The notes beneath the pieces are model-generated. The model saw only the letters and a program-made list of their open reading frames with translations, was not told the DNA's origin and did no database searches. DNA of 63,357 bases, counting the filler, from Octopus bimaculoides (Eukaryota), in the NCBI RefSeq assembly GCF_001194135.2. It is 5 parts of 5 records of this genome, joined end to end, with 100 filler letters (N's around TTAATTAATTAA, not from the genome) between each part and the next. Parts side by side here need not be neighbours in the genome. Positions count along the whole stretch, not along the records: positions 1 to 26,936 come from NC_068983.1; positions 27,037 to 51,893 come from NC_068985.1; 3 more parts are not named here. The stretch is one strand, 5' to 3'. The number at the start of each line of letters is the position of its first letter. Position 1 is the first letter of the stretch. Made by a program: the position numbers and the translations under genes. Below, piece by piece: positions 391 to 46,070 of the stretch.

Positions 391-548
391 AACAACAACA
401 ACATCGACAATAACTTTAGGAATGAGAACACAGGTTCCAAATTTCCCCAAGACACTTGATGATGGCTGGAGGTTATATTAGCCGAAACGTTGTGTCAACA
501 ACAAACAAGGTGAAGACAACTATCCGTCAAATGTAAATAATGTAAATA
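391..548 (+). mobile_element. Tail of hammerhead-bearing short repeat (copy 1)
   Basis: Aligns by eye with 45623-45790 (-) and 45956-46070 (+): AACATCGA..TAGGAATGAGAAC..GGTTC..AATTTCCCCAAGACAC..AACAACAAACAAG..TATCCGTCAAATGTAAATAA. Confidence 0.8.
451..496 (+). ncRNA. Minimal type I hammerhead ribozyme motif, degenerate (C3U)
   Basis: GACAC-TTGATGA-T-GGCTG(GAGGTTATAT)TAGCC-GAAACGTT-GTGTC: helix I GACAC/GTGTC, helix II GGCTG/TAGCC, palindromic loopless helix III, GUU triplet. Confidence 0.7.
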
Positions 549-3299
549 CTAACACCCCCCCCCACCACCAAATACAATGCAACTATAAATCTACTGCTGC
601 CCTATCTCAAGAAATAACTTGTATACTAGGGCAACATCAAGGAACCCAACAAAGGCGGACAATTCTTTCAAGTAAAGGTCTATACAACATTTGGTGGTAT
701 TCCGAGACAAAAACGAATCTCAGTCAACATCCCTTTCAAGTATGATAGAAGTTGGAATAAGCAACCCAACGATATAAAGGAAAATAATTGCTAAAGCTAA
801 AAATTACAGAAGTTGGTGTACCAAATTCGAACTCTCTATTACTGAAAAGTTAAACATTATACAATAAACATATAACATTTGTAAACATTAAGTTTGAAAG
901 CATCACGCATGCCGCAGACAATCATTGTGTTATTTATTAATGTATAACTTTGCAAATGGCCGAATTGTTTTGTGTAAATAATGAACATGCATGTAAAATA
1001 TATGTTGCCTATGATTTACTATAATTATTTTTATTCTCGCCGTCCTACGATATTTCTACAGATTTATATCTCTCCTTTAGATTGGCAGGAAAATTAATAT
1101 TTCATTCAGTGATACTTATCTTTTTAGAGATTCCCGAGAAGGAGGTATACCACACGGTTACTATCAGTAAGTTGCTTCAACTTTTATATCAGCTCAATAT
1201 ACATCTCCCCAATGATTCCACACTGAGTTTTCCATTTACTTACCTCAGACCCCTACTTACATTCAATTCCATCACTATTCCCTCACAACTCTTTTATATC
1301 TCACTTCTGTTGTTATATGTGGTTTTTGAAAACGTGTAAGCAATCTTCACCTAACCCGCTAGATAGCTCTCTAGTTACCATGATTTCTTTTCAACCAATT
1401 TATTTAACGTCAAATTACTTCCCAAGATTACATTCAAATTCATCGTATTCAAGTGGTATTGTCTGACGCTTCCCAGAAGATAAAGACAATTTTGTCATTC
1501 CACCACTTGAAACCGACCAGGCATATGAATAAAAACAATATAAAAATGTCGGCTAGTATTGGAAGTAAAATTGATATAGTACAAGACATTTATTTAATTT
1601 CTTTCTTTCCATGCAATAGATCAAAATTGCAAATGGAAACATTTGGTATAGCGTGAATTAATATATATCATAGTTATGAAGAAACTTGTTTTTTGAAAGA
1701 ATCAGTGAAATTAATAATGTCCTCCAAGAGAAAATATCTCTGAGAGAGTGCTAAAATATTGAATATAGATTGAATATAGAGTATCTTACGATTGATTCTG
1801 TAACGTGATATATTAAGGTGAACTCTTCATATAATGAATATTATTCGTCGATATGAAAAAAGAAACATGCTTATCTGAAAACCTAATCATCCAACGTTGA
1901 AACTAACGAAGATCACGCCAAAAGTGTGAGATACGCATATGGCAGGGAAAACAATTTTCCATATCAGCAAACATATGCCGAAATTAAATAGCGTTCCAGG
2001 AAGAGGTAAGTCTATAAACGTGCACCTTGCTGGATACAGATATAGATACAAATATGTACTAACATAAATAATAATATGCATGCACACAAAAACGCACGAA
2101 CACACACACACACACACCCACACACACATATATATATATATATATATATATANNNNNNNNNNTATATATATATATATATATATATATATACTATGATACA
2201 CACATTTAAAACACCATTCATACAAGTACACATAGACGAACACACATGTACGCAAGAACAAACACACTCACAGATCTATATATTTCCCTATCATTCTATT
2301 CTATCTATCAATCTCTCTATGTACATATGTATTTATATACAAATGTACACACACACAAGCACATACATATATAGATATAGGTGTACACGAACATTTGTGT
2401 ATAGGAACAAATATATATATGCAAAGATAATTATATATATAAGTACACATGCATACACACTCACACACACACATACAAACNNNNNNNNNNNNNNNNNNNN
2501 NNNNNNNNNNNNNNNNNNNNNNNNNNNNNNNNNNNNNNNNNNNNNNNNNNNNNNNNNNNNNNNNNNNNNNNNNNNNNNNNNNNNNNNNNNNNNNNNNNNN
2601 NNNNNNNNNNNNNNNNNNNNNNNNNNNNNNNNNNNNNNNNNNNNNNNNNNNNNNNNNNNNNNNNNNNNNNNNNNNNNNNNNNNNNNNNNNNNNNNNNNNN
2701 NNNNNNNNNNNNNNNNNNNNNNNNNNNNNNNNNNNNNNNNNNNNNNNNNNNNNNNNNNNNNNNNNNNNNNNNNNNNNNNNNNNNNNNNNNNNNNNNNNNN
2801 NNNNNNNNNNNNNNNNNNNNNNNNNNNNNNNNNNNNNNNNNNNNNNNNNNNNNNNNNNNNNNNNNNNNNNNNNNNNNNNNNNNNNNNNNNNNNNNNNNNN
2901 NATACATTCACATATATATACCTATACATATATACTTAGATATATATACATACATATATATATATATATATAAATATATATATATATGCTACTTCCTTAA
3001 AATGGGTTACATTTTAATTTTCCTTTAAATAAATGCATTAAAAGAAGAATGTTTTGGTTTGTTTTACATATTTCGGTTTTTAAAAAATCGTCATGTATTT
3101 TTTCCCCTAAAAGGATATAAGTAAAGAGAAAAAGATGTATTAATAAAATTAAATTAAAATTAAGATAAAAATGAATATTCATTGTTTACTTTCCTTTTTT
3201 TCGGTAGTAATTTACCGTTAATTTTCGTGGCATGACAATTTGAACTGTGACCGCATACTATTACAATGGTAATTTGCGATCACAGACAGTTCGATAACT

Positions 3300-5530
3300 T
3301 ATATTTTGATGGCAGTCACAATGTTTCTTGAGTTGAATTTCGATTTCAATAGACGTATGAGACGCTTGAAGTATGCAATCACCTTGGGTTACATTTCCCT
3401 GTACAAGATATTGTGCAGCTCCAGGATCCCAAGGTATTTGTACCTCTCATCATCCGGGTCTTCTATTCTCTTTCTGTTTGGCAATTCTATGCTCATACTA
3501 TTTGCTGTTTCGTCCCCTTGCAAGTAAGCACCGCACACTTCGATATACCGAATTCCATCCCTATATATATATATATGCTTCACATTTTTAGTCTCAACCA
3601 GCATCCATTTGAGGCTCTGATTTAGTGAACAGTTTTAAATTGTCAACGAAGAGAAGGTCGTTGAGACGGGGTTCGTTCTTTCTCAGCTCATAGGGTAGGT
3701 TGATTTTACGTAGGACTACAGAAAGTGGGGTCAAGGCTATAACAAATAATACAGATTCACATGTGTCTCGTTGGAAGTTATCTCTTTTGATTGATGCGTT
3801 TTCCAACTAGGCATGCTGTTCTTAATAAGTGCACAAACGTACTCAGCTGTTCCACACATGTCGAGTGTTTCCAAAATCCACGAAGGCGTCAACATGCCCA
3901 TGCCATGCATAACATTTATGGTACCGATTACAGTTCTTCACTATAACTTTGTCTATCACAATGTGATCCTTGGTGCGCTTGGATTCTTTTCAGCATCCCT
4001 TTTGTTCTACTAGCAGAAGATTGTTTTCCACAAGGAAGATATATGTTTTCACTATGAGGGTATCTGTTAATACTTTCAATATTCCCCTTTCTTCTATCTT
4101 TCATTACAAGTGCTGTCCTCTCAATCACCATCCACGCAGATGCACTACCTTTCTGGAGACACTCATTCAATTAGGCTGCTATTCTTTTATGCCCCGCGTG
4201 GCATGTCTTCAACCAGAAGCCATGAATCCCATCTGGTCCGGCGGTTTCAGTTAGGTACTTTAACCACTTTTACATTCACATCACCCATGCTTATCACAAT
4301 GTTCCTTTGTTTCTTTCCTGCTTGTAATTCTGTCTTGATAGTTCCTATCCACATTGCATCCCTTTTAGGCACCACATTGTTTCCGTATAATCCGCTCCAG
4401 AACTACTTCACTTGCTTTGTATCGGGAGCATTATATTCCCCATTGTCTCATTCTAACGTTCGGAAGTATTTCCGATTTATTTTTGGACAAACTGTTCTCT
4501 GGCTGATTATTTCTTTTCACAAATCTGATCTTCTGGCATTTTGCCATGATCCTCTTTTGTAACTGCTCTATTAATGCATCAAACCCTTTGTTCCGTATTT
4601 TATATTTTTTCTCTAATTTTCCTCGGTCGGGCTCTTTCCCATTTTTCCAGTTTCCTCCTAACCGTTGCTCAAATTTTCATAGATATTACTTCGATCGCAT
4701 TATGTCCCTTTCAACGTGTCGTTTCTACCTTGCTTCTTTTTCTCCACCATGTTTTGTTCTCTTAAGTTACAATTTCTTCTCAACAAGTAGCGCAATAGCC
4801 AGGAGAAGATTCATTGTTTTATGTCGTCTGTATTGATGTATCGTATGACAGTATTCAACGTTTGTGTTACTTTCTTTATCATACTCCTATTTAAACCATA
4901 CCATATTCATGGGGATTTTTACTTCTGGTGTATTCATCAAGTCGGTGAATCGTGTTTGATTTTGAGGCAATTCATTACCTAGTTGGTTCATTTCCCTTAC
5001 ATGTCCACCCACCACCGTATCAGGGTTCACTGTAAAACCTTCCTGTTCCTCATCCTTAACAGCCCCATCACCATTCTCCTGTTCCTCCTGTCTACTCTTC
5101 TCCCTGATTCCAACTTCTACCTCTCTGTTTGCAACACCGAACATCCTTTGTAGTCCATCCGCAAGGTCTCTCGTACTCTCACTACTTCTCATAATATTTC
5201 TACTCTAGTTAAGTAACCATTCCACCTAATCACTCTCACTTGGTTCATTAGTTTCTTTTCTGGACACATTGGACACATTAGACACATTTCTGGACACATT
5301 GGACACATGTCATTTTCCATCCAAAATTTCAAGGTACGTCGGCCTACTCCGCGACTTCTTTCCAGCTTTACTCTTTCATGACATTCAATAAGTGTATCGT
5401 ACATTTCCTACGTCCACTTATATCTGTTTTGACACACACCGTGTACGTAATCTATTGTGACACAACAACCGTCCGAGCCCAGATCACTGCCCTTGACACA
5501 GGGCGTTTCGGACGTGCCGGGCGGGAAAAC
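3300..5530 (-). mobile_element. Decayed Dong/R4-type LINE (N-terminal region plus RT domains, many stops and frameshifts)
   Basis: Fragments EKKLMNQVRVIR..GYLT (5189-5404), KYKIRNKGFDALIEQLQKRIMAK, RTALVMKD..KGN (3928-4170), IKRDNFQRD..LFVIALTPLSVVLRK..LLFVDNLKLF (3594-3806), YKYLGILE (3389-3604). Confidence 0.85.
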
Positions 5531-5544
5531 TTTACATTATGATT

Positions 5545-45622: not shown

Positions 45623-45809
45623 CAGTTCTATATTTAAGAGATGAGGAACTATTTACATTATTTACATTTGACGGATATTTGTCCTCATCTTGTTTGTTGT
45701 TAACACAGCGTTTCGGCTGATATACCCTCCAGCCTTCATCAGGTGTCTTGAGAAAATTTCGAACCTGAGTTCTCATTCCTAAGGTATTTTTAACCACTAC
45801 GCCATATGC
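45623..45809 (-). mobile_element. Hammerhead-bearing short element (copy 2; head cut to 20 nt, tract deleted)
   Basis: Minus strand: GCATATGGCGTAGTGGTTAA joined to AAATACCTTAGGAATGAGAAC..GACACCTGATGAAGGCTGGAGGGTATATCAGCCGAAACGCTGTGTT..TATCCGTCAAATGTAAATAA. Confidence 0.8.
45702..45747 (-). ncRNA. Minimal type I hammerhead ribozyme motif (canonical CUGAUGA/GAAA; U16.1C)
   Basis: GACAC-CTGATGA-A-GGCTG(GAGGGTATAT)CAGCC-GAAACGCT-GTGTT. Confidence 0.75.
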
Positions 45810-45813
45810 ACAC

Positions 45814-46070
45814 GGGCATATGACGTAGTGCTTAAGAGCGCGGGTTACTAACCCCAAGATTCCGAGTTCTATTCCAGACAGTGACCTGAATAATAATAAT
45901 AATAATAATAATAATAATAATAATAATAATAATAATAATAATAATAATAATAATAACAACAACAACATCGAAAAATACCTTAGGAATGAGAAACTAGGTT
46001 CGAGATTTCCCCAAACGTTGTGTTAGCAACAATCAAGATGAGGACAAATATCCGTCAAATGTAAATAACG
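45814..46070 (+). mobile_element. Hammerhead-family short element (copy 3): tRNA-like head + (AAT)n + tail with ribozyme core deleted
   Basis: A-box-like TGACGTAGTGC, B-box-like GAGTTCTATTCC (45864-45875), (AAT)n 45889-45955, tail with deletion between TTTCCCC and AAACGTTGTGTT. Confidence 0.8.

Follow-up and report, generated by a model that had tools for sequence, protein, structure and literature searches.

The genome of Octopus bimaculoides contains an abundant family of short repeats in which a tRNA-derived head is fused, through an (AAT)n tract, to a tail carrying a minimal type I hammerhead ribozyme like those of Penelope-like elements (PLEs). Judging from the sequences of its copies and their junctions, the unit would probably be a non-autonomous element of ~270-320 nt, likely transcribed by RNA polymerase III (Pol III) and likely copied by the reverse transcriptase (RT)-endonuclease of a PLE. 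The family was recognised in a window of 63,357 nt (the whole stretch of DNA analysed, from assembly GCF_001194135.2), which is AT-rich and microsatellite-rich animal DNA with 4298 N. Its 5 parts are joined by 100-N filler, positions 1-26,936 coming from NC_068983.1 and 27,037-51,893 from NC_068985.1. The window alone provides suggestive, thin evidence, and it is the population data that carry the family. These were obtained by comparing two stretches of the window with 3 RNA runs and 4 DNA or untyped contig sets, all public, among them the RNA runs X22 and X24 and the DNA contigs X1 and X12 (two species labels). The counts of joints, ends and variants refer to the best-supported ones only. 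The public data richest in the family come from DNA runs that bear three species labels, whereas the RNA runs X15-X20, with a small share, stood outside the comparison. A sequence-only reading of the window had proposed the fusion, an intact consensus core, mobilisation by a PLE RT and the possible production of self-cleaved or circular RNAs, and is partly supported: head and tail belong to one amplified family, A box, B box and hammerhead core are whole again in the majority reading, and the insertion marks (5′ truncation, inverted partner, two groups of 3′ ends) fit a Penelope-like RT. The self-cleaved or circular RNAs, on the other hand, have so far found no support, as there was no tandem context, no peak of beginning or ending reads and no long go-back joint among the joints listed.

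Copies of the element in the window

Three related segments, as first proposed, are present: copy 1 (391-548, plus strand), copy 2 on the minus arm and copy 3 on the plus arm of a composite insertion. Copy 1 (413-548) is 89.7% identical to copy 2 over 136 nt (E 6e-49), and copy 3 shares both ribozyme flanks with the other two but misses 36 nt of the ribozyme. The three-copy unit built from them stands as far as the segments are concerned; a whole head, however, occurs only in copy 3, and the segments correspond to two insertion events instead of three. A 14-bp target-site duplication (45607-45620 and 46069-46082) encloses copies 2 and 3, which face each other head to head; 12 of its 14 positions are identical, a score reached by 8 of 3000 random pairs. 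Being within one duplication, the two copies represent a single insertion, and it is the one insertion with both ends inside the window (duplication in 1 of 1). From left to right, the composite starts with the tail of copy 2 (45621-45790, minus strand), whose 37 3′ bases (45621-45657) are absent from copy 3, so that only one arm carries this extension. The tail is joined straight to the first 20 nt of the head, all that copy 2 has of it, in the form of an inverted fold-back arm (45790-45809, minus strand; hairpin z -5.9). Copy 3 follows with a tRNA-derived head (45814-45888, plus strand), an (AAT)22(AAC)n linker (45889-45966) and a tail (45967-46068) with the 36-nt deletion of the hammerhead core and without the 3′ extension.

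Copy 1 has no head and consists of (AAC)n and a tail with the hammerhead, ending near the short 3′ end, without extension. It sits behind the C-terminus and 3′ untranslated region (UTR) of an RT-encoding long interspersed nuclear element (LINE), from which an (AAT/GAT)n tract separates it (351-390, plus strand). This 3′ end of a non-LTR (long terminal repeat) element, at 1-350 and with 68 homologues at E <= 1e-10, is presumably R4/Dong-like. Dong elements are described as targeting TAA tracts (PMC3812793) and Dong-R4 is reported as active in O. vulgaris (PMC13282606), so that a nested insertion likely explains the LINE beside copy 1.

The head of copy 3 follows the tRNA pattern in exact register: with +1 at 45814, it keeps 13 of the 14 positions that we take to be invariant in tRNAs, and 14 such hits arose by chance in 30 shuffles of the window. 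The A box (45821-45831), an anticodon-like loop (45845-45851) and the B box (45866-45874) can be placed along it, following A/B-box motifs that we likewise assume to be the standard ones. The majority reading of the family repairs five lesions of this head (45823, 45831, 45845, 45870 and 45878), giving perfect A and B boxes and 14 of 14 invariant positions. Neither ARAGORN, Rfam nor BLAST (against phages) called a tRNA or a hammerhead in the decayed copies of the window. Four other heads of tRNA-derived SINEs (short interspersed nuclear elements) within the window begin in the same register as the head at 45814 and match it at 34-38 of 75 positions. Other tRNA-headed SINE families, with different heads, were observed at 28832, 32149, 34638 (minus strand), 51148 and 56578.

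The minimal type I hammerheads of copy 1 (451-496, plus strand) and copy 2 (45702-45747, minus strand) do carry the lesions attributed to them, C3U in the former and U16.1C, at 45708, in the latter, and the core of copy 3 is deleted. In copy 1, moreover, a U occupies the extra position after A9 and stem II contains a G-U pair; this copy has a loopless A-C-G-U helix III and a GUU site, whereas the cut predicted for copy 2 would fall between 45707 and 45706. As for the core elements CUGANGA and GAAA..UH, the 5′ core is found in copy 2, and UH in copies 1 and 3. The majority reading restores U16.1 (45708 is canonical in 94-96% of the DNA depth), and no frequent variant affects the 5′ core (45736-45742) among the best 40 of 101 variants; CpG sites, those of the ribozyme included, are altered in 10-15%, as in neutral decay. 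The motif agrees with the minimal hammerheads of PLEs, as characterised by Cervera and de la Pena (PMC4209133), in the extra nucleotide after A9, the G10.1-C11.1 pair, helix II, the short helix I and the palindromic 15.2-16.2 pair without loop 3, a loopless helix III of the dimer type, and the alignment in that paper also contains the C-G-U-U ending. In its minimum-energy fold, copy 2 forms a stem I of 5 bp and a stem II of 6 bp, with z only -1.4 (-2.15 for copy 1), and the bare core pattern occurs 1 time in the window for 1.57 expected by chance, that is, not above chance. The tail of copy 2 forms a single open frame (96 of 3000 shuffles), which may be a mild sign of the start of a PLE open reading frame (ORF), as in Poseidon, whose ORF is described as starting inside the hammerhead (PMC11167929).

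Hammerhead-like motifs were also found outside the family. When contigs from metagenomes, genomes and viruses were scanned for the pattern, they gave 4, 5 and 2 loci, none of them in this family, and four of these loci (L001-L004) are hammerheads of other animals. In L001 (817-1345, minus strand; a metagenome contig, probably animal host DNA), an unrelated locus itself found by the core and stem pattern, the end of a putative PLE-like GIY-YIG ORF precedes a minimal hammerhead with the same core and stem II by ~110 nt (Pfam E 0.014, below the cut-off). A covariation count on the pattern-scan loci was dropped as circular, because the search pattern fixed the stem. Within the window, a second minimal-hammerhead-like family (22843-23158) forms a head-to-head inverted pair in an (AAT)n tract, with a variant 5′ core, a fold of helices I and II and a palindromic helix III; this pair illustrates how the AAT tail of a SINE could come to receive a PLE end. 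In a third hammerhead-like repeat family (26485-26590, plus strand, and 37418-37522, minus strand), both copies have A6 replaced by U, and helix II measures 4 bp.

Linkage, insertion marks and transcripts of the family

The linkage between head and tail recurs in many copies of the family. The joint 45791-45892 was found in 344 of 9318 placed reads of X22 (121 starts), 261 of 6934 in X24, 8 contigs of X1 and 11 of X12. Behind the tail start, the loose ends are made of (AAT)n(AAC)n in 898 and 617 reads and in 224 and 250 contigs; those that leave the 3′ side of the head pass through (AAT)n to reach the tail start. The fixed junction of head, (AAT)n and tail indicates that one chimera was amplified, with neither loss of the consensus core nor unlinking of its two halves. 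In all, 37201 and 39328 contigs aligned to 333 nt of the element, and the summed depth, which is not the same as copy number, sets rough bounds of ~6500 to 200000 tails and at least ~1800 heads. The translated element opens two predicted proteins, one from O. sinensis and one from O. bimaculoides, and the family is accordingly an octopus repeat. In these predicted isoforms (P0002 and P0003; dystrobrevin beta), the element constitutes the N-terminus, which may reflect exonisation or an annotation artefact; P0003 shows a join of the head start to the ribozyme like that of copy 2, in another species.

The commonest 5′ loose end of the family is the tRNA +1 itself (45814; 210 and 120 reads, 30 and 22 contigs, agreement of 0.41-0.43 in DNA), and only a few bases upstream of this boundary are shared in the commonest class. 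Depth declines steadily from 3′ to 5′, a sign of 5′ truncation. The 3′ ends form two groups (45655/45650 and 45621/45620), 30-37 nt apart, beyond which the DNA flanks are unlike (agreement 0.39-0.48), so that the copies are dispersed and not in arrays. Inverted junctions account for 7 of the best 15 of 255 joints and bring a 5′-truncated inverted tail next to another copy, with varied break points; whole heads in such junctions start at 45811-45817. The fold-back around 45812 is spanned by 15 of the 16 longest pieces listed (there are 6146 more pieces), whereas the depth at 45790-45809 was excluded as proof of the palindrome, because plain heads also align to the arm of copy 2. As with SINEs, the element is short, dispersed, high-copy and, in the composite insertion, flanked by a target-site duplication, and it also bears the marks of PLEs: an optional 3′ extension of 30-40 bp and an inverted 5′-truncated copy adjoining the 5′ end.

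Family reads make up 0.06-0.07% of the RNA reads, with both directions alike, and 84% and 71-72% of the placed ones run on into unlike sequence. In these data, the RNA signal of the family is mostly read-through in host transcripts. The reads show no begin or end peaks in these libraries, which are of fragmented cDNA and unsuited to small, capped-less or circular RNAs, and no long go-back joint appears among the best 15 of 255 and the 8 joints listed. The RNA also differs from the DNA by A>G/T>C changes, at 45693, 45718, 45748, 45756 and 45757 in 12-24% of X22 versus 0.2-1.5% of DNA X1, and at 40 places in each RNA run versus 9-10 in DNA. This excess likely corresponds to adenosine-to-inosine (A-to-I) editing on both strands, the RNA and DNA being from unmatched samples.

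Mobilisation of the element and competing explanations

The origin of the family could be traced to the insertion of a 5′-truncated PLE end into the AAT tail that a simple tRNA-derived SINE carried, giving a chimera that would have kept the region for PLE protein binding and RT initiation downstream of the ribozyme. Its cycle would start with the synthesis of a tRNA-headed monomeric RNA by Pol III from the A/B-box promoter. The PLE enzyme would then nick both target strands and prime at two internal sites, so that the long arm would lack the 30-37-nt extension and the short inverted arm would carry it. The hammerhead would mainly be a part of the inherited recognition module: lacking a loop in helix III, the monomer would not self-cleave, and its cleavage would separate the promoter from the priming region, which makes an inherited recognition role more likely. 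The composite of copies 2 and 3 fits this type of insertion, since both arms have the 3′ end, only one has the extension and a single duplication surrounds them. Insertions of PLEs are described as 5′-truncated and as frequently having an inverted, truncated partner at their 5′ end, together with an extension of 30-40 bp at one end (Craig et al., PMC8557442). The Poseidon protein reportedly cuts both strands at ATT in vitro and begins reverse transcription from two internal positions, which bound the extension, in a two-step 3′ end described as unique to PLEs (Frangieh et al., PMC11167929). The two groups of 3′ ends in the octopus family match this PLE-specific tail (PMC8557442, PMC11167929).

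Several observations weigh against a Pol III-transcribed element with a PLE partner. Mismatches of copy 3, at 45810 and 45813, in part determine where the 5′ loose end falls, and in one class of copies the head is preceded by at least 30 nt of common upstream sequence (21 contigs of X4, with an agreement of 0.83; 12 and 22 in X13; 106 and 98 reads in X22), which lies too far up for a type 2 Pol III start. The RNA reads have neither a begin nor an end peak at the head, and the absence of a T4 run from the element is uninformative (1943 of 3000 shuffles). An autonomous PLE with this tail was not found: two protein searches gave 1 hit/3 candidates each, none of them RT-linked, and both hits are host genes in which the element is read as an exon; an atlas search found no such partner, and no RT and GIY-YIG ORF adjoins any of the three copies of the window. 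Target-site duplications, finally, also accompany the insertion of LINEs. As for the upstream extension, which in other copies precedes 45807, by eye it looks like a fold-back arm of the head that has decayed, with one frame open across it, and its sequence was not found in the window.

That extension, common to all four runs, would be expected if the unit represented no more than the 3′ end (pseudo-LTR) of some longer PLE, autonomous or not, which captured a tRNA-derived SINE; its copies would then be ordinary 5′-truncated insertions derived from Pol II transcripts, with the A and B boxes as mere passengers. The steady fall of depth from 3′ to 5′ and all the insertion marks are also those of truncated PLEs, and PLEs cover 6.83% of the assembly from O. 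vulgaris (PMC13282606 supplement). However, the commonest 5′ boundary and the head starts of the inverted junctions fall within ~3 nt of the tRNA +1, with unlike sequence above, the A and B boxes are perfect in the majority reading, and the likeness by eye of the extension to a fold-back arm of the head may offer another origin for it; a longer PLE is rather unlikely, although it seems the strongest of the competitors. An ordinary SINE dependent on a LINE (e.g. Dong/R4 or RTE), with a captured PLE fragment as its body, would equally leave a target-site duplication and 5′ truncation, and copy 1 stands directly behind the 3′ end of an RT-encoding LINE, and Dong-R4 is active in O. vulgaris (PMC13282606); yet the TAA targeting of Dong (PMC3812793) accounts for this position as nesting. 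The 3′ end of the element is defined and non-repetitive, without poly(A) or a simple-repeat tail, and shows no similarity to the 3′ end of the one window LINE compared. Both inverted arms contain it, which is not known of the twin priming of LINEs, and its two-step form is described as unique to PLEs (PMC11167929), all of which renders the dependence on a LINE improbable.

A cycle like that of retrozymes, where multimeric or paired transcripts self-cleave as dimers, circularise and are then reverse transcribed, appears still more improbable. In its favour, the core is intact in the majority reading, the loopless palindromic helix III is of the dimer type (PMC4209133), animal retrozymes form circles of 170-400 nt (PMC7229834) and retrozymes have been proposed to stem from PLE pseudo-LTRs (bioRxiv 10.64898/2026.07.22.740005). 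But no tandem array of the family is present in the window and the 3′ flanks differ between copies, so that tandem arrays are not dominant, although rare ones could remain. The ends of the copies lie at set positions, 49-87 nt past the cut and not at it, neither a long go-back joint nor an end peak is among those listed, and the co-folding of natural copies, both of them lesioned, gave no intermolecular helix III. The ribozyme of Poseidon is described as requiring the protein and as dispensable for insertion in vitro (PMC11167929), and 8 of 9 Xenopus dimers are reported as uncleaved (bioRxiv 10.64898/2026.07.22.740005).

Relation to known elements and implications

Several further features of the window were observed. 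A 14-bp tandem repeat of 5.9 copies (45404-45485) lies 120 bp from the composite insertion, a degenerate TAACCC-type array (41912-42068) lies beside an assembly gap, and 12050-14023 and 14920-15353 hold broken Gypsy-type pieces, of integrase and of RNase H, together with part of a mariner transposase.

Octopus tRNA-derived SINEs, OK, OR1 and OR2, were reportedly described by Ohshima and Okada in 1994. The combination of a Pol III-type promoter with a hammerhead has a precedent in the SINE-like tandem repeats of schistosomes, SMalpha and Sjalpha, which are also short non-coding repeats with such a promoter followed by a type I hammerhead (reviewed in PMC6765202). These, however, are tandem repeats whose canonical hammerheads release monomers, and need the promoter of the upstream unit (PMC6765202), whereas the octopus element is dispersed, with a loopless ribozyme and insertion ends of the PLE type. 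With Penelope- and Poseidon-type PLEs it shares the anatomy of the ribozyme, the 5′ truncation, the inverted partner, the optional 30-40-bp tail and the AAT/ATT context (PMC4209133, PMC8557442, PMC11167929), but it lacks an RT-GIY-YIG ORF, and the tRNA-derived head replaces the end of the ORF and the 3′ UTR. Non-autonomous PLEs and non-LTR retrozymes (MRC1, PMC8557442; Heliconius, PMC6685494; PMC7229834) are similarly short, non-coding and provided with a PLE-derived 3′ end, and have likewise been proposed as mobilised by PLE enzymes (PMC8557442, PMC6685494). Retrozymes differ, nevertheless, in forming head-to-tail arrays that yield circles, and the passages concerned do not mention a tRNA promoter (PMC7229834, bioRxiv 10.64898/2026.07.22.740005). 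Finally, tRNA-derived SINEs and the TRIMp3 element Helenus (PMC10886601) also combine a tRNA-derived internal promoter with the signal by which an autonomous element is mobilised, this signal being a LINE tail in SINEs and of LTR type in Helenus, and probably of PLE type in the octopus element.

No dispersed tRNA-headed, PLE-mobilised element is described in the full texts and supplements searched, a search that did not extend to Dfam, Repbase and SINEBase, and the motifs of the element are absent from the supplements searched (all but 1 file of PMC4209133 and 4 of PMC9115989). Kojima regards tRNA-promoter elements dependent on LTR elements as a new type, and the word Penelope is absent from the text (PMC10886601). 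A repeat this abundant is probably contained in automatic libraries under another label. The ingredients of a tRNA-headed and PLE-dependent element, the association of Pol III promoters with hammerheads and the non-autonomous PLEs, are already known. It may well be, though we put it forward tentatively, that the family represents an undescribed third kind of mobile element derived from small RNAs, a Pol III tRNA SINE with a PLE partner, beside the LINE-dependent SINEs and the LTR-dependent TRIMp3.

Dependence on LINEs is what defines SINEs, and this rule would be widened by an element that has a tRNA head and PLE marks. Such an element would also provide a short natural substrate for the little-understood mechanism of PLEs, including the two internal RT starts, the priming at both strands, the inverted arms and the role of the ribozyme, and its thousands of copies would offer natural PLE junctions in large numbers for analysis. 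If this reading is true, ~170 nt would mark a natural cis signal for PLE priming, and thousands of hammerhead folds would have been placed in the A-to-I-edited transcripts of octopuses.

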